Shown: piece after piece, positions 37,534 through 64,000 of the stretch
Layout of the letters: every line of letters begins with the position of its first letter
Numbering within the stretch: position 1 is the stretch's first letter
Assembly: GCA_002441245.1 (NCBI GenBank)
Contig: DJVP01000005.1
Span: 66,303-130,302 of the forward strand
DNA length: 64,000 nt
Origin: Candidatus Omnitrophica bacterium UBA6253
Lineage (GTDB): Bacteria; Omnitrophota; Gorgyraeia; Gygaellales; Profunditerraquicolaceae
Direction of reading: 5' to 3'
Position numbers and translations under genes: made by a program
The notes under the pieces: model-generated
What the model was told of the DNA's origin: nothing
The model's input: the letters and a program-made list of their open reading frames with translations, nothing else
Database searches by the model: none

Positions 37534-37565
37534 AAAACAGGTAAAGTACCACGTACTATTAAAAT

Positions 37566-37739
37566 TTGACAAATAAATATAATATGTTATACTTTTATTG
37601 TGACAGGAACAAAAAGATCCGAAAAGGTAAACTCATAGTAATATGGGGGCGCAAAGCCAAGGGTCCTGAGGTTAAGGATAGCCAGGTTGCCGAAGATTAG
37701 GATTTACCCCGGTTGGTGAGTTTACCGGGGTTTTTTTTT
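37566..37739 (+). ncRNA. Candidate small RNA or cis-regulatory leader of about 140 nt. It has its own sigma70 promoter (TTGACA-16-TATACT) and an intrinsic terminator (CCCCGGT...ACCGGGG + T9).
   Basis: Promoter at 37566-37593, predicted TSS near 37600. Terminator stem at 37707-37713 / 37724-37730, T-run at 37731-37739. GGTAAACTCA (37625-37634) is complementary to TGAGTTTACC (37717-37726), which overlaps the terminator 3' arm and gives a possible antiterminator. Not assignable to a known RNA family by eye. Confidence 0.45.
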
Positions 37740-52300: not shown

Positions 52301-55300
52301 GATCCGCAGAAATTCAGCGTAGAGGCATGGATATATCCTACAGATGTTACTACTGAGGGGTATATTGTTCAAAAGACCGGCGATACAAGCAGTTATTCCC
52401 TTAAAATAGCCGCAGGAGGGTCTCTGCAATTCTGTATATATGACGCAACTAATACGCCTCAAATAGCTTCGGGGAATGAGGCGCTCTCTGCCGGCATTCC
52501 TTATCATATCGCTGGAACATACGATAGTACTGATGGACTGGTAAAATTATATATAGATGGCGCATTACAGGTTAGCACTGCTACAGCTACTGAGATTAAC
52601 ACTACATCGGCACCGTTTAAGATCGGGGATACTTTTAAGGGAAGGATAGATGAGGTTTCTATTTATAATAAAGCCTTGTCTTTAGCTGAGATAACCGCGC
52701 ATTTTGAGAGAAGGCAATATGCAAGCACAGCTCCGGCTACTCCGGTAGTTGCGGCAGAAGAGCCGATAAATAAATATTTGTGGACTATACCTTCTGATCC
52801 TGCGGACCTATCGCAGTACGTAAAGGTGTATATTACTGACCGCAATACCGTAGTCGGCGGCAGCACGATCTCCGATGCATCCGATAATTATTTCAGTATT
52901 ATCAGTTATCCAAGGGTTATTATTAAGCAGCCAAACGGCGGCGAGGTGCTTACCACTGCGGATTCCTACGATATAACCTGGAGATACGATGGTAATATAG
53001 GTAAGGATACTGATTATATGACATTGGATTATTCTATTGACGGAGGTACTAATTGGGTAACTCCCGCTATAAACGATTATGTGCTTAATAGAAACGGTAC
53101 CTTTACCTGGCTCTCTATACCGGATGCTCCATCTTCGGATGTGCGGGTTAGAATCAGGCATAATAGTGATCCGCTCGTTGTCGATGTATCTGATGCGTCT
53201 TTTAAGATCCAGGGTAAATTAATACTTCCATCAGTGGATCATCTTCCTCAGTTTACCGAGGTTCAGGGGGGGAGCACTGAATATATTTATTGGGATACAG
53301 TAGGTACGATTAATCAGGTAATACTTCAATATTCCAAGGATGGTTTTGTTTCCGACGTACACACTATCGTAGAAGGACTGGCTAATTCCGGCTCTTATTT
53401 ATGGACAGTGCCGCGCGATTGCTCTGAGTCAGTGGAGTTGCGCGTAATAAATTATGTTGATGCAGATGTATATGATGTTTCTGAGGTATTTACCATTAAA
53501 GGGCTTACGCTTACTTCTCCTAACGGATCCGAGAACTGGGCGATAGCTACTGTGCATAATATAACCTGGAGTTCAGTCTCCTTGCAAAGTTCAAACGTCA
53601 AGTTAGAGTATTCCGTAGACAATGGCACAACCTGGGATGAAATTATTGCCTCTACGCCGAACACCGGTTCTTATAGCTGGACTATACCTAATAACGGGGT
53701 CAGTGATGGAGAGGCGTTAGTCAGGGTAAGCGATGCTTCGTTGTCAGGGGTATGGGATATATCAAATGCCAATTTTACCATAACCGCCGGGGCCTTAAGC
53801 GGCATAACTATCCAGCCGGTTTCTAATATTGCCCGCTCAACAACTAATTATAATATAGATTTTACTGTTCAAAGCCCTATACCGGCTGATGGAGATGTGG
53901 AGATAGTTTTTGATGCGGATTATAATATCTCAGCTGCCGCAGTCTCCTTGCCTACGGATGGTACCAGTATTGTCAGCAAGCTGAATAACTGCCTGGTAAT
54001 AAACCTTGCTACTGCAATAGATGAAGGTACTCAATCGGTCTATCAGTACAGGCGGTTAATTAACCTTAGTTCTGCCACCACAATAGCTAATTATCAGGTG
54101 CAGGTTGATTTGACTGCTGCTGATTTTGATTATGGCCATGCTAAATCAGATGGAGGCGATATAAGATTCTATGATACAGCTATGAATACATTGGATTACT
54201 GGATAGAAACATGGGTCAGCGGAGGAACTTCCAAGATTTGGGTAAAGATCCCTAATATCGGCACAACATCATTCTATATATATTACGGAAAGGCTGACGC
54301 GATAACAACATCCAGCATAGACGCTACAATGGATGCGGGGTTAAGATTTAAATATTATGATGGGATTGCCTTTGCGGATCCTTCGTTGGGAAACGCCATA
54401 GATACGGATATCAACCATGATTGGGGTAGTGATGTTGTTTCAATTAACGGGGTGGGAACGGATTCTGATACGCTTAGTATAAGGTGGGAAGGGTGGGTAA
54501 AAAATAAAGGCAGCGGTACGCATAATTTCTATACTACTACAGATGACGGAGCCAGGCTTTATGTAAACGATACGCTGGTTATTAATCATTTCATTGATCA
54601 AGCTGAAACCGAATATGTTGCTGCAGTCAGTCTTTCTTCCGTAGTGCCTATTAAATTTGAATATTATGAAAATACAGGAAGCGCTGTAGCGCAATTAGGA
54701 TGGGCCCCTGCTGATAGCACGGGTAAAGTTTATCCTATACCTTCAACTTATTTGTATTGCCACAAATATTCCGCAAGCGCGCCAACCTTGACTATGGATG
54801 ATGAAACCGCGGTTCCCGCCGGTAAAGCCGTTTCCTTGGTAATCTCTGGTATTAAAAATCCAGCTGCCCAGATAACCGACTCATTCTTTATAGAAACCCA
54901 GGATGCAGAGGATAGGGCGATGGATAGGGGTACGACAGATGGCTTAACAATAGTGCCTGGTACAATATCTCCTACAGTTACTTCTGGGAGTTTGAAGGTG
55001 AGCACTCTAACCAGTTATGGTTTTATTTTTACGCCGGCGCATACGGTTGAAGCAGGTGGTAAGGTAGTGATCGGATTTGATGCCGACTATGATTTAAGCG
55101 CGGTAGGCGCAAGTAATATCACAGGAAATACCGGTGCCACTCTTTCAGTGGATAATAGCGCCAAGATTATAACCGTAAACTTAGGCTCGGGGATAACCAG
55201 TACGGCCACTCTTACTATAGCTAATATCAAGAATCCTCCCTATGTCCAAACCACGCAGGCATTTTCAGTGGCTACAAAGACAGCGGCCTTGAATACAATA

Positions 55301-58300
55301 GACCAGGGGGTAGCGGCCGGCGTGGGCATAACAGCGGGTACATTGAGCAGCCTTTCCGTTTCCGCGGCAAGCTTAGAGGTGAGCGCGGTTACGGATTATA
55401 ACTTTGGTTTTACCACTGAACATGCTTTAGCGGCAGGTCATAAAGTCAGCATTCAGTTTGACCCTGATTATGATTTAACCGGAGTGGGAGTATCTAGCGT
55501 GGGAGGGAACTCCGGCTCAACCGTTAGTGTTAATGGAAATATCCTAACGGTTACCTTGGGCGAGAGTATCCCGGCAACAACCGCAGAGGTATTAACTATA
55601 AACAATATAAAGAATCCTTCTTATGTGCAGACAGTGAACAATTTCTCAATAATAAGCAAGGATCCTAATGAAGAGATTATTGACCAGGCAACTATAAGTG
55701 GTGTTACTACGGTTGCCGGTAATTTTAATGCTACTGTTTCTATATCTAATGTTTCCAGTGATAAAACCGGAGCCACGCTGGTACAGTACACCTTTAATTT
55801 TACTCCTATCCATAGCGTAGCGGCAGGAGGTACCGTAAGGATAGATTTTGATGCTGATTATAATACGAGTTCGGCGAGCCTGATCTCTCCATCCTCTGAC
55901 TATACAATTAATTCAAGAGGGAGTAACTATGTGATATTAAATTTGGTAAATGCTCTTGAAACCGGAGTTGCCGAGGCCATTAGGCTGGGAAACATAACTA
56001 ATCCTGCCTATGTGCAGTCAGTTACTTTTAGTATCAGCACTTACAATGCCTCCGGAAGGGTTGACAGCGGCACTTCGCCAAACTTCAGTATCCTGGCATC
56101 AGTTTTAGTAAATTGTTCGGTTACGCCGTCTTCTTATATTGCCACTGAAACAAGTACTAATTATATTGCGTTTGCCCCGGTTAACCCCCTTAGTATAGGG
56201 GATTTGGTAGAGATTACATTTGACAGCGATTATGTTTTGACAAGTGCTGTTTTCTCAAGCGGTAATAGCGGCGCCACATTAAGTATTTCATCCAATAAAC
56301 TCATTGTTACCTTAGGCACGGCGATTGAAAGCCTGACTCCTGCAACTTTTGCTATTTCCGGAATCAAGAACCCCGGGGCGCAGGTTACGGATTATTATTC
56401 CATTGTTACTAAAAAGTCCACAGGCGAAATCAGGGATGAAAATTCCCAGGTGGCTAAAAATACAATCGTAACGGGTACTCTGACAAGCTTGTCAGTCTCT
56501 TCCAGCACAACCGAGGTAAGCGAAAGGATAGAAGCTACTCCGTATTTAAGCTTTAATTTTACATTGGCACATGAGCTTCCTGTTGGAGGGTATGTTAAGA
56601 TATATTTCGATCCGGATTATGTATTCCAGGTGGATACTTTCTGCGTTACTAATGATTATAACCTTTCCAAAGATGACACAAATAAGATTATCAGCCTGCA
56701 AAGGACAAGTTCTGCTGTGCAGACAGGCGCAACGACTATACAACTGGCAAATATCAAGAACCCGCCTTATGTCCAGACTACCGGGAATTTCTTAATAAGA
56801 ACCGAGCTTTCCAATCAAACTGCTATAGATGTAGGATCTGCAAGCGGCATTGGGATTACAGCAGGTGCATTGACCGGTATTACTTTAACTGCGGATTCTG
56901 CAATTGTTAGTGAATTTACAACCTATGCGTTAGACTTTACTAGCGACCATGCGGTAGAAGCAGGGGGTAAGATCAGCGTTGCTTTTGATACGGACTATGA
57001 ATTCAAATTATCTGGAAGATATGCCTGCGTGGTTTCTATGGTAGATAGCTCTTTAACTATTATAGATATATCGACTTCTGCCGGACCTACACTTGTCTCT
57101 GAAATCTCGGATGGGACAGGAGGATTTACTAAATTAGCCGGCGTTAAGTCAGTTTATGTATCAGGCAATTATGTATATGCGGTTTCCTCAATTGACAGTT
57201 CTTTAACCATTATAGATATATCTACTCCTGCCAGCCCGGTGCTTGTCTCTGAAATCTCGGATGGGACAGGAGGATTTACTAAATTAGACGGAGCTCAGTC
57301 AGTTTATGTATCAGGCAACTATGCTTATGTTGCAGCTTCAACAGATAACGCGTTAACCATTATAGATATATCTACTCCTGCCAGCCCGGTGCTTGTCTCT
57401 GAAATCTCGGATGGGACAGGAGGATTTACTAAATTAGGCGGAGCCAAATCAGTTTATGTATCAGGCAACTATGCTTATGTTGCAGCTTCAACAGATAACG
57501 CGTTAACCATTATAGATATATCTACTCCTGCCAGCCCGGTGCTTAAGTCTGAGGTGTATGATGGGGATGGAGAATTCAGCAGGCTGGCCGGAATTGAATC
57601 CGTCTATGTATCAGGTAACTATGCATATGTTAGTTCTTCAACGGACAGTTCTTTGACTATCATGGATATATCAGACCCGGCTAATCCGGTGCTTAAGTCT
57701 GAGGTGTATGATGAAGACGGGCAGTTTACTAAATTAGGCGGTGCTTATTCAACTTATGTATCGGGTAATTACGCTTTTGTTGCTTCTGCTACGGACAGTT
57801 CTTTGACTATCATGGATATATCAGACCCGGTTAATCCGGTGCTTAAATCTGAAGTTTACAATGGTGACGGGCAATTTACTAAAATAGGCGCTCCGCTTGC
57901 AGTTTTTATATATGGAGATCAGGTTGTTTTTGGCAATAATGCAGGGGCGACAGTTGCATCCAGCGGCAACCTGTTAAACATTACTTTAGGTACTGCTGTG
58001 GGGTCTAACCAGGCTGTCAGCCTGGAGCTAGATAATATAAGGAACCCATATTATGTGCAGACACCAGAGGTTTTTCAAGTGCAGACCAAGAATTCCGCAG
58101 GCGGAGTAATAGATCAGAATCTTTCTGTTGCTTCTACGTCTATCGTAAAGGGTAGCTTTACAGGTTTAAGTGTTGCGGCTGTGGACAGGGAAATCAGCAA
58201 GTCTGATAACTATACATTTACTCTTACTTATAGCCATCCGGTGCCAAAAGATGGTTATTTGAAGATTGAATTTGATACCGACTACGATTTAAGTTCGGCG

Positions 58301-61300
58301 TATCTGGTCAGTCCTACTGACCGCTATACCTATTTATGGAATACTGGCTGGACATATATAGAACTTAAATTAAAAGAGGGAGTTATAGCTAATACTACCG
58401 ATACTATCGTGTTGGGGTCAGTGAAAAATCCAAGTTTTGTACAGCAGACCAGCGAACATCAGATTACAAGTTTAAGTACGGATGCCACAGGCAATGCGAT
58501 TATAGACCAATCTACGCTTACCGGCCTGGTAATTATCGGTGGAAAACTGACCGGCGTATCTGTCAATACTACTAATAATATTGTTACCGAAACTTCAAAT
58601 TACACAATTAACCTTACAACTAAGAATCCAATGTCGCTTAATCCTTCGATCAAGGTGCGTTTTGATGCAGATTATAATATATCGGGGGCTACTTTTGTTT
58701 CCGGAACAGTCGATGGGGCAGCTATGGTCACGCAGGCTACTCCCCTTACCATAGATGCAGTTAATAATATTGTGACACTTGGGCTTGCTATGGATATAAC
58801 CAACTCTACAGCTGTTATATCTTTTACTCTCTCGGGTATTGTTAACCCTAAGTATGAACAAGCAGTGGAGTTTGATATAACTACCCAGTATGGCGGTAAT
58901 GATATAGATATTACTGATCCGGCTGCCAAGCCTGTAGTGTCTATATCCGCAGGCGCCATAACCGCTGCGAGCGTTAGCCCGGTTACAACAGAGGTAAGTG
59001 AATCCGGAAATTACACATTTAATTTTACTCTGCCGCATGTTTTGTATACGGGAGGTTTCTTAAGAATACAGTTTGACGCGGATTATAACTTGACCAATAC
59101 CAACTGTCAGACAAGTGGTTATTCATTGTCAAAAGGCGCAGACTATATTTCCCTGCAAAGGACAGGTGCGCAATTAACAGGCAGCCAGAGTTTAGTTTTG
59201 GGTAATGTTAAAAACCCTTCCTATATTCAAACTACCGGTAATTTTGTTATGCGTACAGAGGATTCGGCGCATAACAAAATTGACGGGGCGGAGATTGCGG
59301 GAGTTACAACAACAACCGGTACTTTAACCGCTCTTTCTTTGACGCCGACTGATTCTACTGTGGCAAATACCACCTCTTATATTATAGCCTTTACTACGGA
59401 TCATGCGATAGTGCAAAATGGCAAGGTTGAAGTTACCTTTGATTCTGATTATACGTTAACCGGCGTAGGGGCCAATGATGTTTCAGGCAATGCAAACTCA
59501 ACAGTGGCAGTAAGCGGCAATAAGATGATCATAACATTAGGTACTGCCGTAGCCGCAGCAACGCCTGTATCTTTGCAGGTATCGAATATTGTGAATCCAA
59601 CTTATGTTAAGACTACTAACAGTTTTGCATTTGAAACAAAAGATGCTACGGCAGGGCTTCTGGACCAGGGGACGGCTTCAGGCATAACAACCGTAGCCGG
59701 TACATTTACCGGGGTAAGCGTAAGCTCTAACTACTACACTACGGGCAAGTCCGATGTTTCCTATACATTTAATTTTACGTACGCGCATGATGTACCTCTG
59801 GATGGATTTTTGAGGATAGATTTTGATACTGATTATGATACGTCTGCTGTTGCGGTAGCGCACGCTGATTACACAAAGCAGGAGGCCGGAGCTAATTATG
59901 TGGTATTAAAGTTGCTTGCGGCAAAGGCAAAAGGAACAGTAGAGTCGGTAGTATTAAGCAATATCAAAAATCCAGGGTATGCCCAGACCGTAACTTTTAA
60001 TATCAAGAGCATGAACACGGCAGGTTCTGTGATTGATATTGTTACTACGCCTTCGCTTGGCATTGTCCCTGCCAGCCTTACGGCGCTTACCAGGGGATCG
60101 AATAGTTATATTGCAACTGAAACAGCTACCTACACAGTGAACTTTACTACATTTAATGCGATTCCCGCAGGAGGAAAGGTTGAGATAGCCTTTGATTCGG
60201 ATTATGTATTAACAGGGGTAGGGGCTAATGATGTTTCAGGCAATACAGGCTCAACAGTAGCCGTAAGCGGAAGTACTTTAATTGTAACTATAGGTACTGA
60301 GATTCCCGCTTCTACTGCGGAAAGTCTGTCTATAGCTAATATCAAAAACCCAGGTGCTCAGACTACAGGCAGTTTTTCTCTGCTTACTAAAAATGCCTCC
60401 GGATACAGCCTTGACCAGGGTACTATAACAGGAGTAACTATCACTACCGGTTCCTTGAGCGCCCTTACTACGACACCCGTGCATACCGAAGTAAGCTATA
60501 GCACTAATTATACCTTTGGTTTTACTGTTGGGCATACAGTACCTGTAGGCGGGTTTATCAAAGTGCAGTTTGATAGTGAATATGATCTTTCTTCAGCTTA
60601 TGTGGTAGGTGATTATACAATATCCAAGGGGGCTAATTATGTTTCATTGCAAAGGAATGTTTCTGCTTTAACCGGCGCCATCACAGTAGAGTTGAGGAAC
60701 ATTAAGAACCCGTCTTATGTCCAAACCACAGATACATTTATTATAACCACGGAATTATCAAATCATGATTCCATAGATGTGGGGAACGCGCCTGCTATAA
60801 CTACAACAGCCGGAACATTAACATCTACAAGCATTGTGCCTGCGACAACTATTGTGGCAGAGCCGACTTCTTATACGCTTAACTTTACCACCGACCATGC
60901 TATAGGACAATATGGCATGGTGGAGGTTAGTTTTGATTCCAGCTGTGATATATCCCTGGTTTTCCCAGGTGATGTCAGTGGCAATGACGGTTCAACAGTG
61001 GCAGTAAGCGGAAATAAATTAATCATAACTTTAGGCACTGCCTTGGATGCGGGCGTGTCAGAAGAATTAGTAATCTCGAATATTACAAATCCTACTTATG
61101 TGAAAACCACGGATACTTTCTTTGTGCAGACTAAAAATCCTACAGGCGGAGTTATAGATGAAGTGACTGCTGCCAGCATAACTACCATTACAGGGGCATT
61201 AGGGTCGCCTTCTGTTACTCCAGCTTCTTTAGTTTCCGGCGCGACAACATCTTATGCCTTTGTATTTACACCGGCTCACGCCGTGCCCTTGAATGGTTAC

Positions 61301-64000
61301 TTAAGGATTGATTTTGACACTAGTTATGAACTTGTCAGCCCGGGAGCAGTGGTTATGAGCAGTACTACTCCATGCGATATTACTTTAAGAGGATCAGGCT
61401 ATTTATTGATTAAATTTCCATCTTCCGGATTGAGTGCCGGAGTAGAACAGTCGATAGAGATAGCTAATGTGGTAAACCCGCCGAATGTTAAGGATCTTTC
61501 GTTTACCCTCATGACTAAGGATACTTCTTTGTATGATATTGATACTGCAAACGTAACCGGCCTTAGTACTACTGCCGGCAGTCTTACCAGCGCAACTTTG
61601 AGCGCAACTACTTATGTTGTTTCAGAGTATGCTACATATATGGCTTATTTTACAACTGCTAACCCTATAGCAGCCGGCGGAAAGGTTGAGATAACTTTTG
61701 ATACTGATTATAATTTGTCATCAGTTGAGTCTACAGATGTATCCGGTAACGCTAGTTCAACAGTAGCGGTAAGCGGTAGCAAGTTAATTGTAACTATCGG
61801 TACGGCTGTTGCCAAAAATACCCAGGTTTATTTGTCCATAGCAAATATCAAAAACCCCGTATACGTGCAGGCTACTGATTCATTTTTAATCCAGACCAAA
61901 ACCGCAAGCGGGGCTATTATTGACACAGTAACCGTGACATCTTTAAATATAGTAACCGGTTCATTAAGCGGCCTGTCTGTAACTGCTGTATCCAAGAAAA
62001 TATCAGATATTACGTCTTATACGTTTAATTTTACGGTACAACATGTCGTTCCCGCGGATGGCTTTATAAGGATCCAATTTGATAGTAATTATTCGTTAGG
62101 AAGCGCTTATCTTGATACGGCCAGTTTCTACAGTTTGCAAAAGGGGAGCGATTACCTGAAGTTTAAGACAGTCTCGCAGATAAATGCCGGCCAATCAGTG
62201 AGTATTCCTATAAGCATGATTGCTAACCCGTCCTATGTGTATACTGTAAGCAATTTCCAGGTAAAAACTTTAACTGCTGTTACGGAGACCCAGCAGATAA
62301 TGGATTCAGGCGTTATTGCCGGTGTTACTTTGACTGCAGGAACCCTGTCCAATATTTCTGTAACACCGGAATCCACAGAGGTAAGCGCACTGACGAGCTA
62401 TACCTTTAATTTCAAGACAGAGAACAGTATTGCTGCCGGTACCGGTAAAGTGGTAATTAACCTTGATAGTGATTATGATTTAAGTGCTGTACAATTAGAT
62501 GATGTGTCGGGAAATGATAATTCGATAGTATCGGTAAGCGGCAATAATTTGGTTGTGACACTGGGCACGGCGGTAGGTTCATCTACGAGTGTCTCCCTGA
62601 TAATCTCCCATATTAAGAATCCTCCTTATGTCCAGACTACAAATAATATAACAATTACCAGCAAGGTTCAGATAAGTACGGTAGATTATGACAAGGATAG
62701 CGGTATTCTCACTCCTGGCCCTGTGATAACCTCGGGCAGCTTTGCCAATGTATCTATAAGCGCTACTTCGCAGGTGGCCGGTGAAGAATCTATTTATACT
62801 TTTGGATTTGCCCCAGCCCATGATGTGGCAGCCGGAGGGCTTCTCTATATTGTGTTTGAATCCGGATACGATGCATCTGGCGCCTATATTACTGGTTCAA
62901 CAGGGACAGGAGTATACGCTGTTTCAAGCTTAACTGCTAATTTGGTGACTTTGAATGTTGCTGCAGCTTTAAACGCGACAGAGGTTCAGACTATTAGTTT
63001 AGGCGGCATAGTTAATCCAGCATTTGTAAAAGATGTTTCCTGCACGATTAAAAGTGCCAATGCCTCTTCTGGCATAATAGATGAAGGCGATACTCCTTTA
63101 TTTAGCATAACACCTGCTCCGCTGGCCGTTTTATCTATAGGCGGATCTTCTTATGTTGCCAGGGATTTGACATCATATACTATTGCCTTTACGAGTATTA
63201 ACCCTATTGACCAGGGCGGAAAGGTAGAGGTTGAGTTTGACGCGGACTACGATTTAACCGCTATCCAGTCGAATAATGTTTCGGGCAATACAGGCTCAAC
63301 AGTAGCCGTAAGCGGCAATACCTTAATTATAACCCTGGGTACGGCAGTTTCTGCCGGAGGGTCGGCTTCCCTGACTGTCTCTAATATTAAAAACCCGGGT
63401 GTCCAAACAACCAGTAATTTTAATCTTATAACCAGGAATTCAAGCGGCAATCAGCTGGATTATGGTTTGGTTGCAGGAAAAAATATTACCGCCGGAACAT
63501 TATCGGGCCTTTTGGCAACTCCCGGCACGGCAGAGATTAGCGAAAGCACTACCTATAATTTTGGTTTTACTTTAGGGCATGATGTGCCTACCAATGGTTA
63601 TATAAGGATACAATTTGATGACAATTATACCTTGACCAACGCCACGGTAGTAACCAGCGGGTATTCTTTAACTAAGGGTGCCAATTATGTTTTACTTAAG
63701 AGGACGGGTTCGGCATTAACAGGCGCAATCTCCATACAGCTTAACACTATTGTTAATCCGGCTTTCGTATCCAGTACCCTTGCGGGATTTTCCATTCAGA
63801 CACAGTTGTCTAATAATCAGGTAATTGATACGGGTATCGCAGCAGCAGTCACTACAACAGCAGGTGCCTTATCAGCTACATCAGTTATACCCACTTCTTT
63901 GGGTGTAAGCACCCTGGCTGATTATACATTTAATTTCACTACGGATCATGCCGTGCTAGGAGGCGGCAAGGTCATTATTACCCTTGATTCTGATTATGAT
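40379..64000 (+). CDS. Giant secreted multidomain surface protein. The gene is 3'-incomplete: there is no stop codon from 40364 to the window end, giving at least 7,874 codons. The start is a probable GTG at 40379, two nt after the upstream stop, with RBS AGGGGAGGA.
   Basis: The +2 frame was translated by eye across the whole span and spot-checked at 49382, 53822, 57002, 60002 and 63902; all checks fit the domain repeats and no stop was met. N-terminal signal peptide NLKNIGIYLAILAAAICLPG. Domains are listed separately below. The ORF track omits it because it has no in-window stop. Confidence 0.85.
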   Translation, partial: MSGRNLKNIGIYLAILAAAICLPGDRLNSADALYTFTQSTWSAGQSSASAVHPTNQSSWDSYYSKDDYATTTETDGYLTLAPDTATLTDTTDVDFDKGEMEKVVVDGTGNDALLQVTPSVADPFASTLGEWLTLPAQPRPDRFTVFCRAGTVVYCLFATGDGRQFGKFIPATGKWVMLAPLPAPAAAGCCIAWDGEAVFALRGEGSKQVYKYTPSTDTWAVFTSLSKGVEYGAAICATGIISTKVGKLFVLLGGNTTDFLCFDPTIGTSGVWKGASSAPATVEAGGRLVYPGSGNYIYACRGQSTSTIWQYSISADAWDTTTPDLPVPTESTAGYEARMWSASNMFWPGTGDYIYAAMTYYCYNKSNITNYQTFWRLGPLSGTPAWERLADCPRYTDNKGFILYDPDGAGTEIQLLSGNNYTNPWHYNIAKNRWKELTQPLWNSSSWGRDIYWVKNHTHSDIVLGSDGFDYICILDHTSSNQTKPVTGASWETYWRRLNPYDTKSWATGTVYAEGDIITGTDSLDYRCIRRHLSADTNKPITGASYSTYWQTPAVTTRGSAWINAKAYVSGPYDDYLYWWGGYYNYNFWRYKISTDTWERLADLPWSGSYSGANMTDIGDGYLYFHRGNNGYNFARYNMSTDVWETLTDSPNSAGFVYGFGVIGVISKADRVLGSDGLGYICKKRHVSSTLNKPISGANWAKYWELNGSTTDCVTWVESKDYGPGLENIKPSIVVGTDGNDYRCIKNHISATSSCPITGTTSTWQTYWVATGTTGQGDTWASGTMYNSRTGTVGHYKFIFGFPGYSTSYWYRYDPIDNTWLTCENVITSIYGGEATWTGLNAPDKGRYIYLERGHGGTYFYRYDIEMDGWVRKTDSFIPTYYHYSAGGLANDGSSQYIYHLSGYHETPYDYRLERYDTSTDSWSEFASLPFCSIYRAVCQTPDAIWASPYYGNDQLMKYDLTKPTHNQPGIWEERVYDTCYSSYADGNIAVDSNGYNYMIFGDMYYYTNSNIWIFDTNAKQSKIVGSDGADYDCILSHTSSADNYPTTGANWTTYWQTSRSTGKGVIWTDSTGYYCSKHANRWSGLIRAPFYLGPGTKGQYMANENSIYFLEGKNTKYVWQYDITNDRWLRAKDTLTVVNRGSELTGGCGVNISGHESPRDVLFCLGGNGATQFNLYFVEPGYDYWTSYLSALDGHSYRGTNSMTYSSYDNRVYKLRTEITSTCYVYNPEQDTWGTINPVGTGGSSGTTYTCDESAVLYYPNDGQKYVYCMTGDGNYSLLRYDIDNLTWEELEPPPAVISSYGSAMSSVGNDYIYIFNATQMDYLFRYHKTENEYDIPAYLPVALDEGGVICGYKGNIYYLCGDSGAFYRFNIGQKKWGVLATCPSTMPNEDPCMKAVEYEGDVSIYVTGGQGTQTFYRYSVANDAWETLEPPSYSWGWGNAIEHVYGSRYIYAMRGGAVSFWKYDIANNDWDTLADLPTTVGRGGALTYPDKGNYLYALSGNRSSNFYRYNYTTDTWTTLNPCMVKILDSHSELIYPGFGNYLYVLHGSSWGDSYESYTYMRYEIKSDGTGTWSELAPASFGVDHPGSMIWPGGEYYYATKGNGRLELAMYYAFCYGTYISGIKPVGAHSGWGNVSWTFNDTQAAEVSFRSGNKTDLSDALSWDLCSDIVNGADLSTASSISAQDVYIQYKIGFSTDNLLQLPKISDVNINYEFYPLKQEVVSSPYNTSFATNRLVKFEWADQQLTGTDVRFKIRTGADLASLLTASWYGPAGTTIEQFTFNDKEDYVANSEVFFTGSSIKLYKKLADFTYSETLYVDNTGGAAKTDSVVSIIISSTNNHFWNHIKSDGADMRFHDGTQELSYYLVSFDSVNKVAEINVHFPSIGANSIKTFYMVYGSEDALSASDATYVSKPGDGLVGYWKFDEGAGLMAYDSSGNGNTGALYPTTKNMPTWDSNGKYGSCIYFDGIDDYVRVTVPDLGTDYTMAFWGTIDEVPIASNSWQAAMGSQTSYPVVWLNPNNWMYHYWYDSKNASHGDNFSYHTKRDEVWRHYVVIHDALGYRAYTDAALNRDYRSFIYTSRDVPSMQWDFGRYFNSTSYNWKGKLDEIVLYNKALTGIEVGYLYQGISRDFTYGVTFGSNETDATCASLVSGGWQKKIPVQVTNAGGLKSNAIIRIDLGKWYEFWAHVKSDGSDIRVVDSDDSTVLSYYIPEWDYANKKGFVLAKTASLAASSTKTVYIYYGNSSAVSAADSSSFMGLEEGFNSCNQVAGDSTALSGWLYKIPLMLKNDSGAPQGQALVVGTDGKDYKCIKSHSSTTFDKPNVGANWATYWQDNSTTGKGVTWATGIAYSSSPAVVRVDMEDSWDNFWANVNSDGSDVRIVASDNETVMTYFLDFFDADLKQGSFLVSVPFINTAAEQKYWLYYGKSDATSLSTNSFLNPLKQVSSTPTQVSRSGATFNPDWQYKMDFTVSNVSTDPDNVVNRCVNIQIPSTWTSFWSNVRSDGGDIRFYDENVTSGDPTYLYYDIDYFDYDKKTASIDVRIQSQNTVPITTWPRTISLYYGNPLVLTDFNNIYNAYDLYMYSAVDETRFTAGGAATSDKSPIINQGYVTLYNNSDAWDSYIKWNGTAFARTAGRTFQAKIYPSYNAQVMIGWKDNEIGVSYSNLIYGIYFNNGSMYIYEDGSNVYSCGTYIRDTWYDIRIELKVMGALYYYKKSEDVDWTLLYTSTYSTESNLRPHIVNDRRDYFTRTTDWKVFLNMTYDVTVGLGDIIKGITNTFSLNEYYQDNPVIQPLGGVFYDSNLASIVETSTVPAGSGLKHQISPDAWNWYWYNSTAISKVVGTDNKDYKCILSHTSSDSTKPITGALYETYWQDNSTTGTGSVWASGTAYNSISTGWNLATAGYTQANTGAEINTNLASFQTLFPSGSLNFRTYLHSNDGTYTPELDNIAVALNASETFYTAKDGADAINALNCDIANDQWVQYKAILYSDGRNTPTVSSVTLTYTDAWLNITAPNGGESWLEGTAHNITWTSQGIDAGASNVKLEYSPDNEATWKTIIASTPNTGTYTWTLPNDPGLLTKVRITSIEYPNVVDKSNTTFRLMGAEITSPNGGNIWELGRSHAITWNSGGTLGSSTLKFEYSIDGGSTWVSPEIASGQTDDGDLTWNITTSTSYASDNVKVRMTDTDNTQVDDSSDAVFALVPQPAITFTYPLGAEQLKVGAQCNITWTTNSQQFGSQFDLYYSKDGFTTETYIATVSSGAPASPLTPNTDLSCSYAWTVPDDLSDNVTIRVREVSVPTGRDTTTKVSKVSSIFEIVDPKITLTSPNGGELWVKEETNNITWTSEGTIHSGSLALQYSMDGGSNWITITGFDGINDGLFAWTIPTDAVSDLCKVKIKDTARTTVSDVSDNTFKIIPSATIEVRSPNGGEIWTIGDTYTITWAVAGQITGHDVTIEYSKDNFVNDINLIKSSTPNDGSETWVGVPNDPSADVKIRITSIQDPTITDISDAVFTICTSGITVISPNGGELWEVRNASDATQTIHNIKWVSGSGVPDGTTDIVLKMSTNSGSSYDTTIATGRAKTGLYPWSVPDSVSSQVRVKAYSFGTPTKTDESNADFSIVPVPKMTITSPLSTGLTVWKVGASYNITWTKVGNLSSTVDLYYSINGSTPTTVIAKGVSNSGTYSWRVPNVGLTSLAKVKVIESTIPVRDTIKKIESTSSVFTIVDPTLTITSPNGAASINDAEAWVQSEQNYITWTPDGLVSNGLLIEYSRDSGSSPTRYTIYDGIVPGTGLTPGSNYARAVTINNTASALSLENYQVKFTLDTSSLISAKMRADGYDIMFADEDEVCPYWIEPGTINTTQTKIWVKVPQIPAGATKKIYMYYGNPNATVNQNFDNTFIKNVINDDIAGYWHFDEGAGTVAYDASGTGRDLSVVGATWHTADGGRWSTQKSVSFNTGSCLIFDGNDYAGYSDNIITDPQKFSVEAWIYPTDVTTEGYIVQKTGDTSSYSLKIAAGGSLQFCIYDATNTPQIASGNEALSAGIPYHIAGTYDSTDGLVKLYIDGALQVSTATATEINTTSAPFKIGDTFKGRIDEVSIYNKALSLAEITAHFERRQYASTAPATPVVAAEEPINKYLWTIPSDPADLSQYVKVYITDRNTVVGGSTISDASDNYFSIISYPRVIIKQPNGGEVLTTADSYDITWRYDGNIGKDTDYMTLDYSIDGGTNWVTPAINDYVLNRNGTFTWLSIPDAPSSDVRVRIRHNSDPLVVDVSDASFKIQGKLILPSVDHLPQFTEVQGGSTEYIYWDTVGTINQVILQYSKDGFVSDVHTIVEGLANSGSYLWTVPRDCSESVELRVINYVDADVYDVSEVFTIKGLTLTSPNGSENWAIATVHNITWSSVSLQSSNVKLEYSVDNGTTWDEIIASTPNTGSYSWTIPNNGVSDGEALVRVSDASLSGVWDISNANFTITAGALSGITIQPVSNIARSTTNYNIDFTVQSPIPADGDVEIVFDADYNISAAAVSLPTDGTSIVSKLNNCLVINLATAIDEGTQSVYQYRRLINLSSATTIANYQVQVDLTAADFDYGHAKSDGGDIRFYDTAMNTLDYWIETWVSGGTSKIWVKIPNIGTTSFYIYYGKADAITTSSIDATMDAGLRFKYYDGIAFADPSLGNAIDTDINHDWGSDVVSINGVGTDSDTLSIRWEGWVKNKGSGTHNFYTTTDDGARLYVNDTLVINHFIDQAETEYVAAVSLSSVVPIKFEYYENTGSAVAQLGWAPADSTGKVYPIPSTYLYCHKYSASAPTLTMDDETAVPAGKAVSLVISGIKNPAAQITDSFFIETQDAEDRAMDRGTTDGLTIVPGTISPTVTSGSLKVSTLTSYGFIFTPAHTVEAGGKVVIGFDADYDLSAVGASNITGNTGATLSVDNSAKIITVNLGSGITSTATLTIANIKNPPYVQTTQAFSVATKTAALNTIDQGVAAGVGITAGTLSSLSVSAASLEVSAVTDYNFGFTTEHALAAGHKVSIQFDPDYDLTGVGVSSVGGNSGSTVSVNGNILTVTLGESIPATTAEVLTINNIKNPSYVQTVNNFSIISKDPNEEIIDQATISGVTTVAGNFNATVSISNVSSDKTGATLVQYTFNFTPIHSVAAGGTVRIDFDADYNTSSASLISPSSDYTINSRGSNYVILNLVNALETGVAEAIRLGNITNPAYVQSVTFSISTYNASGRVDSGTSPNFSILASVLVNCSVTPSSYIATETSTNYIAFAPVNPLSIGDLVEITFDSDYVLTSAVFSSGNSGATLSISSNKLIVTLGTAIESLTPATFAISGIKNPGAQVTDYYSIVTKKSTGEIRDENSQVAKNTIVTGTLTSLSVSSSTTEVSERIEATPYLSFNFTLAHELPVGGYVKIYFDPDYVFQVDTFCVTNDYNLSKDDTNKIISLQRTSSAVQTGATTIQLANIKNPPYVQTTGNFLIRTELSNQTAIDVGSASGIGITAGALTGITLTADSAIVSEFTTYALDFTSDHAVEAGGKISVAFDTDYEFKLSGRYACVVSMVDSSLTIIDISTSAGPTLVSEISDGTGGFTKLAGVKSVYVSGNYVYAVSSIDSSLTIIDISTPASPVLVSEISDGTGGFTKLDGAQSVYVSGNYAYVAASTDNALTIIDISTPASPVLVSEISDGTGGFTKLGGAKSVYVSGNYAYVAASTDNALTIIDISTPASPVLKSEVYDGDGEFSRLAGIESVYVSGNYAYVSSSTDSSLTIMDISDPANPVLKSEVYDEDGQFTKLGGAYSTYVSGNYAFVASATDSSLTIMDISDPVNPVLKSEVYNGDGQFTKIGAPLAVFIYGDQVVFGNNAGATVASSGNLLNITLGTAVGSNQAVSLELDNIRNPYYVQTPEVFQVQTKNSAGGVIDQNLSVASTSIVKGSFTGLSVAAVDREISKSDNYTFTLTYSHPVPKDGYLKIEFDTDYDLSSAYLVSPTDRYTYLWNTGWTYIELKLKEGVIANTTDTIVLGSVKNPSFVQQTSEHQITSLSTDATGNAIIDQSTLTGLVIIGGKLTGVSVNTTNNIVTETSNYTINLTTKNPMSLNPSIKVRFDADYNISGATFVSGTVDGAAMVTQATPLTIDAVNNIVTLGLAMDITNSTAVISFTLSGIVNPKYEQAVEFDITTQYGGNDIDITDPAAKPVVSISAGAITAASVSPVTTEVSESGNYTFNFTLPHVLYTGGFLRIQFDADYNLTNTNCQTSGYSLSKGADYISLQRTGAQLTGSQSLVLGNVKNPSYIQTTGNFVMRTEDSAHNKIDGAEIAGVTTTTGTLTALSLTPTDSTVANTTSYIIAFTTDHAIVQNGKVEVTFDSDYTLTGVGANDVSGNANSTVAVSGNKMIITLGTAVAAATPVSLQVSNIVNPTYVKTTNSFAFETKDATAGLLDQGTASGITTVAGTFTGVSVSSNYYTTGKSDVSYTFNFTYAHDVPLDGFLRIDFDTDYDTSAVAVAHADYTKQEAGANYVVLKLLAAKAKGTVESVVLSNIKNPGYAQTVTFNIKSMNTAGSVIDIVTTPSLGIVPASLTALTRGSNSYIATETATYTVNFTTFNAIPAGGKVEIAFDSDYVLTGVGANDVSGNTGSTVAVSGSTLIVTIGTEIPASTAESLSIANIKNPGAQTTGSFSLLTKNASGYSLDQGTITGVTITTGSLSALTTTPVHTEVSYSTNYTFGFTVGHTVPVGGFIKVQFDSEYDLSSAYVVGDYTISKGANYVSLQRNVSALTGAITVELRNIKNPSYVQTTDTFIITTELSNHDSIDVGNAPAITTTAGTLTSTSIVPATTIVAEPTSYTLNFTTDHAIGQYGMVEVSFDSSCDISLVFPGDVSGNDGSTVAVSGNKLIITLGTALDAGVSEELVISNITNPTYVKTTDTFFVQTKNPTGGVIDEVTAASITTITGALGSPSVTPASLVSGATTSYAFVFTPAHAVPLNGYLRIDFDTSYELVSPGAVVMSSTTPCDITLRGSGYLLIKFPSSGLSAGVEQSIEIANVVNPPNVKDLSFTLMTKDTSLYDIDTANVTGLSTTAGSLTSATLSATTYVVSEYATYMAYFTTANPIAAGGKVEITFDTDYNLSSVESTDVSGNASSTVAVSGSKLIVTIGTAVAKNTQVYLSIANIKNPVYVQATDSFLIQTKTASGAIIDTVTVTSLNIVTGSLSGLSVTAVSKKISDITSYTFNFTVQHVVPADGFIRIQFDSNYSLGSAYLDTASFYSLQKGSDYLKFKTVSQINAGQSVSIPISMIANPSYVYTVSNFQVKTLTAVTETQQIMDSGVIAGVTLTAGTLSNISVTPESTEVSALTSYTFNFKTENSIAAGTGKVVINLDSDYDLSAVQLDDVSGNDNSIVSVSGNNLVVTLGTAVGSSTSVSLIISHIKNPPYVQTTNNITITSKVQISTVDYDKDSGILTPGPVITSGSFANVSISATSQVAGEESIYTFGFAPAHDVAAGGLLYIVFESGYDASGAYITGSTGTGVYAVSSLTANLVTLNVAAALNATEVQTISLGGIVNPAFVKDVSCTIKSANASSGIIDEGDTPLFSITPAPLAVLSIGGSSYVARDLTSYTIAFTSINPIDQGGKVEVEFDADYDLTAIQSNNVSGNTGSTVAVSGNTLIITLGTAVSAGGSASLTVSNIKNPGVQTTSNFNLITRNSSGNQLDYGLVAGKNITAGTLSGLLATPGTAEISESTTYNFGFTLGHDVPTNGYIRIQFDDNYTLTNATVVTSGYSLTKGANYVLLKRTGSALTGAISIQLNTIVNPAFVSSTLAGFSIQTQLSNNQVIDTGIAAAVTTTAGALSATSVIPTSLGVSTLADYTFNFTTDHAVLGGGKVIITLDSDYD
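40900..45200 (+). other. Region of about 16 Kelch-type beta-propeller blades with five interspersed CBM5/12-like (ChtBD3-like) modules.
   Basis: Blade motifs such as YIYACRGQSTSTIWQYSISADAWDT, LYFHRGNNGYNFARYNMSTDVWETLTDSP, IYAMRGGAVSFWKYDIANNDWDTLADLP. CBM5/12-like modules, e.g. LGSDGFDYICILDHTSSNQTKPVTGASWETYW at about 41767-41875 and VVGTDGNDYRCIKNHISATSSCPITGTTSTWQTYW at about 42580-42690. The other three are at about 41935, 42395 and 43450. Confidence 0.6.
45860..48700 (+). other. Four DUF2341 modules and two LamG-like (concanavalin-A-like lectin) jelly-roll domains, with two more CBM5/12-like modules at about 47270-47410 and 48890-49035.
   Basis: DUF2341-like segments: FWNHIKSDGADMRFHDGTQELSYYLVSFDSVNKVAEINVHFP...FYMVYG; WAHVKSDGSDIRVVD...VYIYYGNS; FWANVNSDGSDVRIV...YWLYYGKS; FWSNVRSDGGDIRFYD...ISLYYGNP. 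LamG: LVGYWKFDEGAGLMAYDSSGNGNTGAL...CIYFDGIDDYVRV...KGKLDEIVLYNKALT. Confidence 0.6.
49390..51690 (+). repeat. Eight tandem Ig-like domains of about 100 aa, Kre9/KNH-like, with a period of about 295-310 nt.
   Basis: Each unit follows I[TS]SPNGGE.W..G....ITW[TN]..G.....V.LEYS.DGG.TW..I......G.Y.WT.P.......V[RK]. Units begin near 49399, 49693, 49990, 50338, 50641, 50935, 51250 and 51556. Confidence 0.65.
51780..52710 (+). other. A DUF2341 module followed by a LamG-like domain.
   Basis: MRADGYDIMFADEDEVCPYWIEPGTINTTQTKIWVKVPQI...IYMYYGNPNA, then IAGYWHFDEGAGTVAYDASGTGRDLSVVGATW...LIFDGNDYAGYSD...GRIDEVSIYNKALSLAEI. Confidence 0.6.
52905..53770 (+). repeat. Three more Kre9/KNH-like Ig-like domains.
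   Basis: IKQPNGGEVLTTADSYDITWRYDG...LDYSIDGGTNWVT...; ...YIYWDTVGTINQVILQYSKDGF...GSYLWTVP; LTSPNGSENWAIATVHNITWSS...VKLEYSVDNGTTWDEIIASTPNTGSYSWTIP. Confidence 0.6.
54050..54720 (+). other. A DUF2341 module (about 54050-54310) followed by a PA14 domain (about 54340-54720).
   Basis: DUF2341: DFDYGHAKSDGGDIRFYDTAMNTLDYWIETWVSGGTSKIWVKIPNIGTTSFYIYYG. PA14: FKYYDGIAF...SIRWEGWVKNKGSGTHNFYTTTDDGARLYVNDTLVINHF...VPIKFEYYENTGSAVAQLGWAP. Confidence 0.65.
54740..64000 (+). repeat. Array of at least 27 tandem domains of about 105-110 aa (period about 320-340 nt), of unassigned beta-sandwich/Ig-like type. It continues past the window end.
   Basis: Recurring unit: ...G.L..LSV.......VS....Y.F.FT..H.V..GG.V.I.FD.DYDL......V.GN.GSTV.VSGN.L..TLGT.......L.I.NIKNP.YVQTT..F...T.......ID.G... 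The [IV]KNP[SP]YVQTT motif recurs about every 330 nt, e.g. near 55218, 55600, 56757, 58030, 59210, 60705 and 62615. Confidence 0.65.
57030..57900 (+). repeat. Five to six LVIVD-type beta-propeller repeats. They are encoded by near-identical direct repeats of about 180 nt inside the giant gene.
   Basis: Protein units YVSGNYAYVAASTDNALTIIDISTPASPVLVSEISDGTGGFTKLGGAKSV repeat. At nucleotide level 57361-57540 is essentially identical to 57181-57360 (ATATATCTACTCCTGCCAGCCCGGTGCTTGTCTCTGAAATCTCGGATGGGACAGGAGGATTTACTAAATTAG...). The flanking copies are more diverged. Confidence 0.7.

Follow-up and report, generated by a model that had tools for sequence, protein, structure and literature searches.

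Introduction

Long arrays of repeated domains in bacterial surface proteins have been described in several settings. Fibrillar adhesins are reported to reach 73 stalk domains in a single protein, and PA14 stands on the list of adhesive domains of fibrillar-adhesin-like proteins (Monzon et al. 2021, PMC8286594). Periscope proteins are defined by repeats that are near-identical and variable in length (PMC9704523). For the phylum Omnitrophota, the passages that two preprints devote to giant proteins describe a T2SS-like locus upstream of a very long gene with diverged repeats, for which adhesion to other cells is proposed, and report products that exceed 30,000 aa and contain numerous transmembrane segments together with SecA-DEAD, dockerin or TSP3 repeats (10.1101/2023.11.21.568195; 10.64898/2026.06.07.730766). 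The latter source also names a ‘tandem-repeat scaffold’ class of Omnitrophota giants (10.64898/2026.06.07.730766).

Here we analyse a repeat array in a 64,000-nt stretch of contig DJVP01000005.1 from Candidatus Omnitrophica bacterium UBA6253, referred to below as the window.

Results

A frame on the + strand is free of stop codons from 40364 to the end of the window at 64000, and its last ~9.3 kb consist of a single domain type repeated head to tail, much as a first-pass annotation had proposed for the last ~9 kb; the units score E 1e-34 to 1e-51 each against their own HMM. The dimensions given in that annotation have to be revised. HMM segmentation yields a repeat unit of ~128 aa (~125-130 aa; ~381 nt), and self-similarity of the array, 0.081 +/- 0.009 in the background, rises to 0.136 at lags of 127, 255 and ~500-513 aa, in place of the period of ~105 aa or 330 nt first read. 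The first unit already begins at nt 53783, ahead of the 54740 originally given. The units in the window number 23 rather than more than 27: 20 are intact, two are split by inserts and the last is truncated at the window end. A higher number, 47, is reached only in the full protein of orthologues. A check for mis-phasing, suggested with the annotation, leaves the periodicity standing but not the domain size, phase or boundary. Segmentation relied on an iterated HMM (A3) because the divergence of the array lies beyond Tandem Repeats Finder, which missed the main array in the window, its units being too diverged, and found only a 150-nt sub-repeat in the LVIVD module described below.

Amino acid identity between units is 19-56% (mean 33%), and nucleotide identity is 45%, with 33% at third codon positions. 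Neighbouring units are the least similar (29% identity at lag 1 versus 37% at lag 4), and the array has a super-repeat of two or four units. Two of the three blocks previously listed as conserved, Y.F.FT..H...GG.V.I.FD.DYDL and NIKNP.YVQTT, are indeed so, but the third, GN.GSTV.VSGN.L..TLGT, belongs to one subtype and recurs in about every second unit only. The N-P pair is invariant across the units of the window.

The units are mostly consecutive, as had been stated, but two of them are interrupted by other modules. The N-terminal part of unit 0 (strands A-E) lies at 53783..54046 (A3 HMM at aa 4474-4591, convincing to about profile position 88, where DUF2341 sequence takes over), and its C-terminal part (strand F, NP motif, strands G-H) at 54770..54961 (HMM positions 66-130, E 4e-14). 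Between them, at 54047..54769, stand a DUF2341 and a PA14 domain (Pfam, aa 4596-4668 and 4667-4787), which, flanked by two complementary half-matches of the unit HMM, apparently form an insertion in the E-F loop. Units 1-5 are intact (54956..56866; full-length HMM matches, E 2e-36 to 4e-51). Unit 6 begins at 56858..57007 (strands A-C, through FDTDYEF; HMM match convincing for positions 1 to ~50) and resumes at 57932..58144 (strands D-H; positions 58-123, E 4.5e-18); its C-D loop accommodates, at 57008..57931, a 308-aa LVIVD insert of six 50-aa stretches (Pfam LVIVD, 2.8e-48), presumed to be a beta-propeller, whose 150-nt tandem sub-repeats share 80-90% nucleotide identity. Fifteen intact and contiguous units, 7-21, follow at 58145..63865 (full-length matches, E 1e-34 to 6e-48), and unit 22 (63857..64000; positions 1-48, E 9e-15) is cut by the window end. 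All of these features lie on the + strand.

The earlier guess of an Ig-like or beta-sandwich fold agrees with structure prediction. An AlphaFold model of a single domain (nt 59312-59701; pLDDT 97.4, pTM 0.89) is an 8-stranded Ig-like beta-sandwich, and a model of three units, the size of segment proposed for such a check, is likewise confident (pLDDT 94, pTM 0.79); the alignment behind the latter (A2) was partly staggered by MAFFT, against which the re-phased single-domain model serves as a control. In the single-domain model the NIKNPxYVQTT motif, first taken for the C-terminal strand, follows strand 6 of 8, with two more strands after it. Its eight modelled strands, within the 7-9 of a two-sheet Greek-key sandwich, and its structural neighbours of the same class place the unit among the Ig-like beta-sandwiches. 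Among its Foldseek neighbours, none above a TM score of 0.62, are integrin legs, a CLIPPER domain of a fibrillar adhesin, cohesins and BslA. The best solved neighbours are YcnI/DUF1775 (7me6, 3esm) and BslA/YweA (4bhu, 5mkd) at 8-17% identity. These are single-domain proteins, Cu-binding in the first case and a hydrophobin coat in the second, whereas the unit is an internal repeat in which the functional sites of YcnI and BslA are neither possible nor conserved. Copper binding of the YcnI kind requires that the His at the N-terminus be free; no internal repeat offers such a residue, and we rejected this function for the unit. The domains of cohesin, alpha-2-macroglobulin (MG) and the integrin alpha leg reach a TM of only 0.45-0.62 and have no sequence relationship to the unit.

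The unit is a sequence family without a curated model in Pfam-A or NCBIfam. As the first-pass annotation had surmised, Big_2, Big_3, Cadherin, fn3 and DUF11 do not match, and neither does CARDB, in scans of the whole protein at E <= 0.01 and of single units at E <= 10; Big_11 appears once in the single-unit scan with E 0.11, which is consistent with chance. The Pfam and PDB searches proposed at that stage turned up no known family, with no domain-level match in Pfam-A, 0 hits in NCBIfam and nothing at E < 1 in a sequence search of the PDB. Pfam DUF2808 (PF10989), a domain of unknown function, does match 2 of 20 single units (best E 0.0016) and, among 80 diverse members of the family, 3 (best E 9e-4), in each case over profile positions ~84-120 of 146, the region of strand F and the NP motif, so that about two thirds of the model is unmatched; all DUF2808 matches, those in the whole protein and in relatives included, fall within positions ~72-124. 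Over the 3,878-aa C-terminal piece of the ORF, which contains the array, the DUF2808 scores add up to 36.1 bits (cut-off 25.3; E 7.9e-9), made up of many sub-threshold partial hits, and similar weak hits are seen in five relatives (P0004, P0005, P0015, P0037, P0042). Membership in DUF2808 at the domain level was rejected, as no single unit or stretch reaches the cut-off and profile coverage is partial; at the level of sequence the summed score is compatible with distant homology, not with membership.

The suggestion that the family is undescribed is right as far as Pfam-A and NCBIfam go, but the partial likeness to DUF2808 qualifies it, as does the spread of the family. A profile search finds it in 1,641 clusters (50% identity) at E <= 1e-3, with 110 at E <= 1e-30, mostly in multiple copies. 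With the unit profiles A1 and A4, a word-indexed search recovered no more than 3-4 fragments, which reflects a limit of sensitivity and not rarity, because the exhaustive search finds 1,641 clusters. Among the bacterial members are those of Omnitrophota and of MAGs labelled Chloroflexi and Proteobacteria; among the protist ones are those of the ciliate Blepharisma stoltei, on megabase-scale contigs, of the cryptophyte Hanusia and of an MMETSP transcriptome. Every named member that was looked up is uncharacterised. Conserved throughout the family are the N-P turn, an Asp in strand H and aromatics in strands B and C; the wider family has FPxGF where this protein has its FDxDYD block.

Orthologues in Candidatus Omnitrophota MAGs share 78-88% identity with the protein at a dN/dS of 0.10. 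In one of them, L002, the entire 33.5 kb locus is a single open frame, and the full protein in orthologues has 47 units: in L001 and L002, five units, a split unit and 40 further units are followed by Kre9-like Ig domains, the array running on for ~24 more units past the equivalent of the window end. Against these two orthologues the array shows no indel over 1,952 aa, the same number and order of units and an omega of 0.10-0.11, with dS > 1 among the orthologues compared, and each unit is 80-88% conserved with its positional counterpart; the head regions have an omega of 0.13-0.18, with indels. These alignments show strong purifying selection and a fixed number of units in the array. The earlier impression of an old, maintained array with no recent amplification, drawn from moderate nucleotide identity, is borne out by the 45% identity and by the comparison with orthologues: as far as sequences tell, the array is old and frozen, because it has no indel over 1,952 aa and a dN/dS of 0.10. 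The LVIVD insert behaves differently in copy number, with 6 copies here versus 7 in L002 and L003.

The array is the central part of one giant gene, which begins 14 kb further upstream, has domains inserted within domains and probably belongs to an operon headed by a riboswitch; all of this had escaped the first-pass annotation. The gene occupies 40379..64000 on the + strand, with a GTG start preceded by GGGGAGG, and encodes at least 7,874 aa before the window cuts it; judging from the orthologues, the full protein would have ~12,700 aa, of which the repeat domain makes up ~6,000 residues. A putative Sec-type signal peptide (MSGRNLKNIGIYLAILAAAICLPGDRLNSADA; 40379..40474), read from the translation, precedes the N-terminal head and proximal modules (40661..53782, Pfam hits). 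These comprise Kelch propeller repeats (Kelch_6, 2.9e-21) with CBM_5_12-like inserts (4.6e-6), five DUF2341 domains (5e-56), Laminin_G_3 (7.7e-17) and a run of Kre9/KNH-like Ig domains (Kre9_KNH, 9.9e-15), all Kelch, CBM_5_12 and Laminin_G_3 matches falling within the first 4,100 residues, ahead of PA14 (aa 4667-4787). A C-terminal transmembrane helix (SWWIILLVVLFLGVLSFGLFIVW) and a basic tail end the orthologous fragments P0154 and P0157, which are 70-74% identical to the tail of L002, and a corresponding anchor is predicted for this protein beyond the window.

Upstream of the gene lie a T2SS-like ExeA/secretin/TPR cluster and, on the same strand as the gene, the predicted control region of the operon. 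A sigma-70-like promoter, TTGACA-16-TATACT with a TG (37566..37593; 11 of 12 consensus positions), stands directly upstream of a c-di-GMP-I riboswitch aptamer (RF01051; 37616..37694), which matches the full model, positions 1-87, with 59.9 bits against a gathering threshold of 35 (E 3.4e-9). Both promoter hexamers are invariant in five diverged relatives, and an aptamer of 55-62 bits occupies the corresponding place in L005, L009, L010, L011 and L012. An intrinsic terminator (ACCCCGG...CCGGGG + T9; 37706..37739; hairpin of -14 kcal/mol), conserved in a five-sequence alignment, would serve as the expression platform. The aptamer segment GGUAAACUC is complementary to the loop and 3' arm of this hairpin (GAGUUUACC), and pairing between the two is a possible anti-terminator. 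Another hairpin, at 37881-37902, was discarded as a platform; it falls within a conserved Y1_Tnp-like coding region, and the conserved terminator is the one at 37706-37739. Four ORFs with overlapping or abutting stop and start codons (37794..40376, from the ORF list, translations and Pfam) lead into the giant gene: ORF A (37794-38786), with a Y1_Tnp-like N-terminus and a hydrophobic segment, ORF B (38783-39205), ORF C (39202-39720) and ORF D (39717-40376), all on the + strand. L009, L010, L011 and same-strain contigs show the same series of small ORFs ahead of a long open frame. Conservation of this layout, headed by the predicted riboswitch, is shown by the sequence comparison, and the giant gene is probably co-transcribed with the riboswitch.

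Discussion

What could be the role of such an array? On balance we favour the view that it is the fixed-length stalk of a membrane-anchored, fibrillar-adhesin-like giant of the cell surface, which would hold a binding head off the cell. In the complete protein, as seen in orthologues, the Sec signal peptide is followed by a distal head of Kelch propellers, CBM5/12-like, LamG and PA14 domains, then by Kre9-like Ig domains, the 47-unit array, more Kre9-like Ig domains, a helical segment and a single C-terminal transmembrane anchor. The PA14 and LVIVD modules, spliced into loops of two stalk units, would be mounted on its side. If each domain contributes 4-5 nm, the 47 domains would form a central rod on the order of 200 nm, keeping a carbohydrate- and protein-binding head and the two side modules away from the ultra-small Omnitrophota cell and so serving its attachment to prey, host cells or particles. 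The rod-like geometry and the length of the stalk, its surface exposure and its adhesive role are inferred. An inner-membrane anchor at the C-terminus would, in a diderm, still require the ectodomain to pass the outer membrane, which makes surface display less certain. Each unit, conserved between species yet very unlike its neighbours, is also under more constraint than a pure spacer would need, and position-specific binding fits this equally well.

The last point is the core of the strongest alternative, a multivalent scaffold in which each unit is a distinct binding module of cohesin- or CBM-like character for many partners or for a polymeric ligand. Units that are 33% identical to one another and yet 80-88% conserved by position, at an omega of 0.10 and with no gain or loss of units, are what such a scaffold would display, and Omnitrophota giants with dockerin- or cohesin-like repeats have already been described. 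The residues conserved across the family look structural, however, and the FDxDYD block is not kept in the wider family; nor does Pfam find a dockerin in the gene or its neighbourhood. Low identity between neighbours is itself expected in long tandem arrays, where it avoids misfolding. We consider the scaffold unlikely.

A second alternative holds that the unit is a divergent member of a described family, DUF2808 or another of the E-set or Big type, with nothing new at the family level. The ordinary fold class, the summed DUF2808 score above its cut-off and the weak hits in five relatives speak for it; the failure of every unit to reach that cut-off, the partial profile matches in so few units and members, and the lack of hits to Big, Cadherin, fn3, DUF11 and CARDB at the thresholds used, or to NCBIfam at all, speak against it and leave it improbable. 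A self-assembling coat or sheath, in which BslA/YweA-like units associate laterally into a surface layer or fibre bundle, is very improbable: BslA is a secreted single-domain protein with a hydrophobic cap, as opposed to 47 linked domains in a membrane-anchored chain with distal binding domains, and the likeness is at the level of the generic Ig fold. Least credible of all is a variable-length, periscope-type region arising from recent amplification, which the long tandem array in a surface protein and the behaviour of the LVIVD sub-repeats (80-90% nucleotide identity, 6 versus 7 copies) would fit, but which is refuted for the main array by its low nucleotide identity, even at third positions and beyond the reach of Tandem Repeats Finder, and by a unit count and order that are identical, without indels, in orthologues with dS > 1.

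The fixed-length stalk can be extended into a bolder proposal, which we put forward tentatively and with more doubt than conviction: that the units are position-coded members of a new domain family shared by bacteria and protists and absent from every curated resource, and that they build a ~200-nm tether of Omnitrophota under direct control of a c-di-GMP riboswitch, probably an OFF switch. Were this the case, it would offer a handle on partner capture by ultra-small episymbiotic or predatory bacteria. The conserved riboswitch suggests a concrete and testable hypothesis about the conditions under which an ultra-small bacterium would put out such a tether.

For the most part, the giant proteins that Omnitrophota and other uncultured bacteria encode are ‘dark’. 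A model of the present family would annotate a sizeable sequence space (at least 1,641 clusters, ciliate proteins included) and would aid the detection of fibrillar-adhesin-like proteins beyond the well-studied phyla. The array exemplifies stalk domains that carry PA14 and LVIVD modules in their loops.

Comparison with known systems

With the giants described from its own phylum, so far as the cited passages characterise them, the protein has in common the very long gene, the upstream T2SS-like locus, diverged repeats that are not of recent origin and a proposed part in adhesion to other cells. It differs from these multi-transmembrane proteins of more than 30,000 aa in its length of ~12,700 aa, its one signal peptide and its one C-terminal transmembrane helix, the numerous transmembrane regions of the Archaeovorin and Dockerin types being replaced by that single terminal helix. 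Pfam finds no SecA-DEAD, dockerin or TSP3 in the window's 7,879 aa, nor in the 1,242 aa that follow the array in L002. The link to c-di-GMP runs through PilZ and GGDEF in the published giants, according to the same passages, and through a riboswitch here. Neither keyword searches of the two preprints nor the structure-prediction section of West-Roberts et al. 2023 yielded a description of this repeat. Cohesins, near the unit in fold, work with dockerin partners that were not detected here.

Periscope proteins share the long surface repeat region, and the copy-number difference of the LVIVD insert fits them; the main array, fixed in length and low in DNA identity, is the opposite of periscope repeats (PMC9704523) and offers an example of a fixed-length stalk to set against them.

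A close likeness is to the stalks of fibrillar adhesins (Big-type, Rib, SasG E/G5 and RTX Ig-like repeats), with which the array would share the plan of a single chain of tandem Ig-like sandwiches, extended as a long rod from an anchor to binding domains at the other end, and whose typical adhesive partner, PA14, is also present in the giant protein. It departs from the listed stalk families in lacking any sequence match to them and in the larger size of its unit, 128 aa with eight strands; in its anchor, a C-terminal transmembrane helix (from orthologues) in place of LPxTG, T1SS or autotransporter; and in two stalk units that host inserted domains. With an adhesive region (predicted binding, Pfam) and a surface-anchoring helix (by orthology), and with a putative signal peptide and a presumed rod of 47 tandem sandwiches, the giant protein, as predicted from its sequence, would fit the published fibrillar-adhesin-like definition (PMC8286594). 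The repeat family is new; the kind of system to which it belongs is familiar.

The giant gene and its repeat array

The region 54740-64000, described in the first-pass annotation as more than 27 consecutive domains of ~105 aa (330 nt), is the tail of a giant gene starting 14 kb upstream, since a single frame on the + strand, free of stops over 7,879 codons from 40364 to the window end, is opened by a GTG start at 40379 (+) with GGGGAGG just upstream. The translation begins with a putative Sec-type signal peptide. In the N-terminal two thirds of the protein, Pfam recognizes Kelch repeats with CBM_5_12-like inserts, five DUF2341 domains and Laminin_G_3, a run of Kre9/KNH-like Ig domains, then another DUF2341 with PA14, and then six LVIVD repeats. 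The CBM_5_12-like element of this head is a ~40-aa motif, [IV]VGTDG.DY.CI..H.S....KP.TGA.W..YW (Pfam E 4.6e-6), inserted at least six times into the series of Kelch repeats and DUF2341 modules at ~41760-49060 (aa ~470-540, 685-720, 745-790, 1040-1075, 2303-2345 and 2853-2895 of the frame).

To segment the array, we built an HMM from the NP motif and refined it by iteration over the protein; its matches to individual units have E-values between 1e-34 and 1e-51. Units repeat every 120-139 aa (~128 aa, 381 nt), and self-similarity peaks appear at lags of 127, 255 and ~500-513 aa, ~6 standard deviations over background; the unit size first proposed is therefore wrong, period and domain boundary both having been misjudged in an array that is itself real. 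The window holds 23 units, not >27 (20 intact, one cut at nt 64000 and two split by inserts); the domains stand head to tail as described but not contiguously. The first unit begins at nt 53783, and complementary half-matches of the unit HMM flank DUF2341 and PA14, which appear to be inserted in its E-F loop. In the other split unit, profile positions 1-50 correspond to aa 5499-5548 and positions 58-123 to aa 5857-5922, the intervening 308-aa LVIVD insert occupying the C-D loop of its host.

Protein identity between units is 19-56% (mean 33%), and the merely moderate nucleotide identity noticed at first reading is borne out, at 45% for DNA and 33%, near saturation, at third codon positions. 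Tandem Repeats Finder does not detect the array. The identity matrix reveals a 2-unit and a 4-unit super-repeat, mean identity rising from 0.29 for adjacent units (lag 1) to 0.35 two units apart and 0.37 four units apart, with neighbours the least similar units. The conserved blocks first listed are real, except that GN.GSTV.VSGN.L..TLGT is no general block and is confined to every second unit. Across 54956-63865 we observe a higher-order pattern A-B-A'-C, in which VSGN.GSTV.VSGN marks alternate units and the remaining units switch between two subtypes.

Fold and sequence family of the unit

The AlphaFold model of three units is confident (pLDDT 94, pTM 0.79). In it NIKNPxYVQTT is followed by two further strands, after which a T.G.L linker opens the next domain; a re-phased single-domain model (pLDDT 97.4, pTM 0.89) has eight strands, with the invariant N-P immediately past strand 6. 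Given this strand order, the reading of the motif as C-terminal strand does not hold. The models and their structural neighbours do uphold the suspected Ig-like beta-sandwich. Listed values are 10.3 for YweA, 10.3 for 3esm and 8-9.7 for cohesins, further neighbours being alpha-2-macroglobulin MG domains, pilins and CBM2; Foldseek matches, none of them with TM above 0.62, are integrin alpha legs, a CLIPPER domain of a fibrillar adhesin, cohesins and BslA. The predicted fold is of a common class, and none of the solved families comes near it.

At the sequence level the unit was initially considered unplaceable, and this stands insofar as no curated model in Pfam or NCBIfam covers it. Searches of Pfam and PDB recover no domain-level family, leaving a marginal similarity to DUF2808, which is matched by two of 20 single units (best E 0.0016, the rest noise) and three of 80 diverse family members (best E 9e-4), within profile positions ~84-120 of 146. 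On the whole array Pfam returns only this DUF2808 signal, summed and sub-threshold; NCBIfam gives no match to the unit, and profile searches of PDB sequences yield nothing below E ~1. By these comparisons the unit family lacks a curated model in the libraries searched, DUF2808 being at most a distant cousin.

The family is not peculiar to this locus but widespread. Run exhaustively with HMMER against 1.84 billion representatives, the unit profile matches 1,641 proteins at E <= 1e-3, of which 502 reach 1e-10 and 110 reach 1e-30, with a median of 4 and a maximum of 29 copies per protein among the best 150 of the 1,641 matches. Named members that were looked up are all ‘hypothetical’, ‘uncharacterized’ or carry the name of another domain; one JGI member is annotated ‘ribosomal protein L22’, evidently an annotation error. 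Members come from Omnitrophota and other bacterial MAGs, and from protists: several proteins of the ciliate Blepharisma stoltei (P0069, P0077, P0083, P0101), one Hanusia phi entry (P0058) and one MMETSP transcript (P0172). These protist proteins are ~2,000 aa long and Cys-rich, with a signal peptide and 7-10 copies of the unit. The Blepharisma genes sit on contigs of >1 Mb, so that contamination is unlikely and the family therefore crosses kingdoms.

Orthologues and evolution of the array

A genome scan identified orthologues: L001 (CAYRUB010000005.1, 88% identity), L002 (78%) and L003 (76%), both labelled Candidatus Omnitrophota, and L004 (46%), from an unclassified bacterium. The MAG of L001, the closest orthologue, is labelled ‘uncultured Planctomycetales’ against the Omnitrophota labels of L002 and L003, which may reflect a taxonomic mislabel or a binning issue. 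A single frame of 11,172 aa, open at either end, spans the complete 33.5-kb L002 locus. In L001 and L002 the array has 47 units, namely a split first unit, five more, one split by LVIVD and a contiguous run of 40, and about nine further Kre9-like Ig domains and a helical segment come after it. Fragments from a related Omnitrophota MAG, 70-74% identical to the L002 tail, reach 451 aa beyond it and finish in a single transmembrane helix and a short basic tail. Because of colinearity with L002 and these extending fragments, the full protein would be ~12,700 aa long.

The earlier suggestion of an old, maintained array is supported. Units 7-22 align with L001 and L002 over 1,952 residues without a single indel, and dN/dS is 0.107 for L001 (dS 0.58) and 0.102 for L002 (dS 1.18). 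With omega of 0.10-0.11 and no gaps in the array, against 0.13-0.18 with gaps in head regions, the array is constrained at least as strongly as the head. The LVIVD insert (57008-57931) behaves differently from the array, being a young 150-nt tandem repeat with 80-90% nucleotide identity. It has six copies in the window and seven in L002 (aa 4440-4800) and L003 (aa 1150-1510), and L001 has an assembly gap (N-run) exactly there; the difference represents either true copy-number variation or a copy collapsed by short-read assembly.

Upstream context and riboswitch

An aerotolerance-type Bat/MoxR operon lies upstream of the giant gene, at the start of a cluster at 22143-36590 that encodes MoxR AAA, DUF58, two VWA/BatA-B proteins, TPR and BatD, then an ExeA-like AAA_22 ATPase, a secretin and TPR proteins. 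The ExeA/secretin/TPR neighbourhood resembles the T2SS-like locus reported upstream of Omnitrophota giant genes.

A near-consensus promoter (37566-37593) directly precedes a c-di-GMP-I riboswitch aptamer (37616-37694; 59.9 bits, with the gathering score at 35), and a terminator with a GC stem and T9 follows (37706-37739). This region (37543-37764) heads a putative operon of four small ORFs, A to D, and the giant gene, into which the ORFs run directly with overlapping or abutting stop and start codons. Riboswitch position and four-ORF series are kept in 5/5 relatives whose loci extend there (ORF-D identity 49% to 97%), and L009, L010 and L011, which extend beyond ORF-D, have a long open frame past it. 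Promoter hexamers and terminator are conserved in an alignment of the window with L005, L009, L010 and L011 (ORF-D identity 49-71%). There is also a conserved 9-nt complementarity between GGUAAACUC in the aptamer and GAGUUUACC in the terminator loop and 3' arm. In silico, this pairing points to a possible anti-terminator, which would make the riboswitch an OFF switch.

In the searchable literature we found no earlier account of a riboswitch preceding a giant gene in Omnitrophota, and two Omnitrophota giant-gene preprints mention neither a riboswitch nor the unit domain. PilZ genes adjoin giant genes according to West-Roberts et al. (10.1101/2023.11.21.568195).

A direct repeat, AAAGTACCACGTAC (core GTACCACGTAC), brackets the promoter-riboswitch-terminator unit at 37543-37556 and 37751-37764. 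It is near-invariant in four of the five aligned sequences, L011 differing at the downstream copy, and might serve as operator for a small MerR-like protein whose gene (37291-37533) lies immediately upstream. In ORF-A (37794-38786, 330 aa), first after the riboswitch in relatives too, an IS200-like Y1 transposase domain (E 3.8e-9) is fused to a hydrophobic stretch and a tail that is charged and resembles a coiled coil. Rather than a mobile element, ORF-A seems to be a Y1_Tnp-like protein that has been domesticated and associates with the membrane. ORF-B to ORF-D (38783-40376; 140, 172 and 219 aa) have hydrophobic signal-like N-termini and no Pfam match, and may be accessory or export factors, since they are conserved in relatives and translationally coupled both among themselves and with the giant gene.

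Interpretation

What could be the role of so long an array? As predicted from its sequence and its orthologues, the giant protein has the make-up given for fibrillar-adhesin-like proteins by Monzon et al. 2021 (PMC8286594), with a putative secretion signal, terminal domains of binding type (PA14 among them), a long stretch of tandem beta-sandwiches and an anchor. Because the architecture fits this description, we read the array as most likely the fixed-length stalk of such a protein. At 4-5 nm per domain, estimated from typical Ig-like domain sizes, the stalk would measure ~200 nm, and the PA14 and LVIVD modules would be carried on loops of two of its units. The main rival, a scaffold in which each unit is an individually functional binding module, accords with the position-specific conservation of units just as well as a stalk does, and we nonetheless consider it improbable. 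A periscope-type variable region is ruled out by the array's lack of indels and low omega.

The locus is of note for its large unannotated family with ciliate members, its frozen array with nested insertions and its conserved c-di-GMP riboswitch. Set beside known systems, the array adds another family of beta-sandwich repeats that probably form stalks, carried by a giant, presumably surface-exposed protein in a phylum whose giant genes are well documented.
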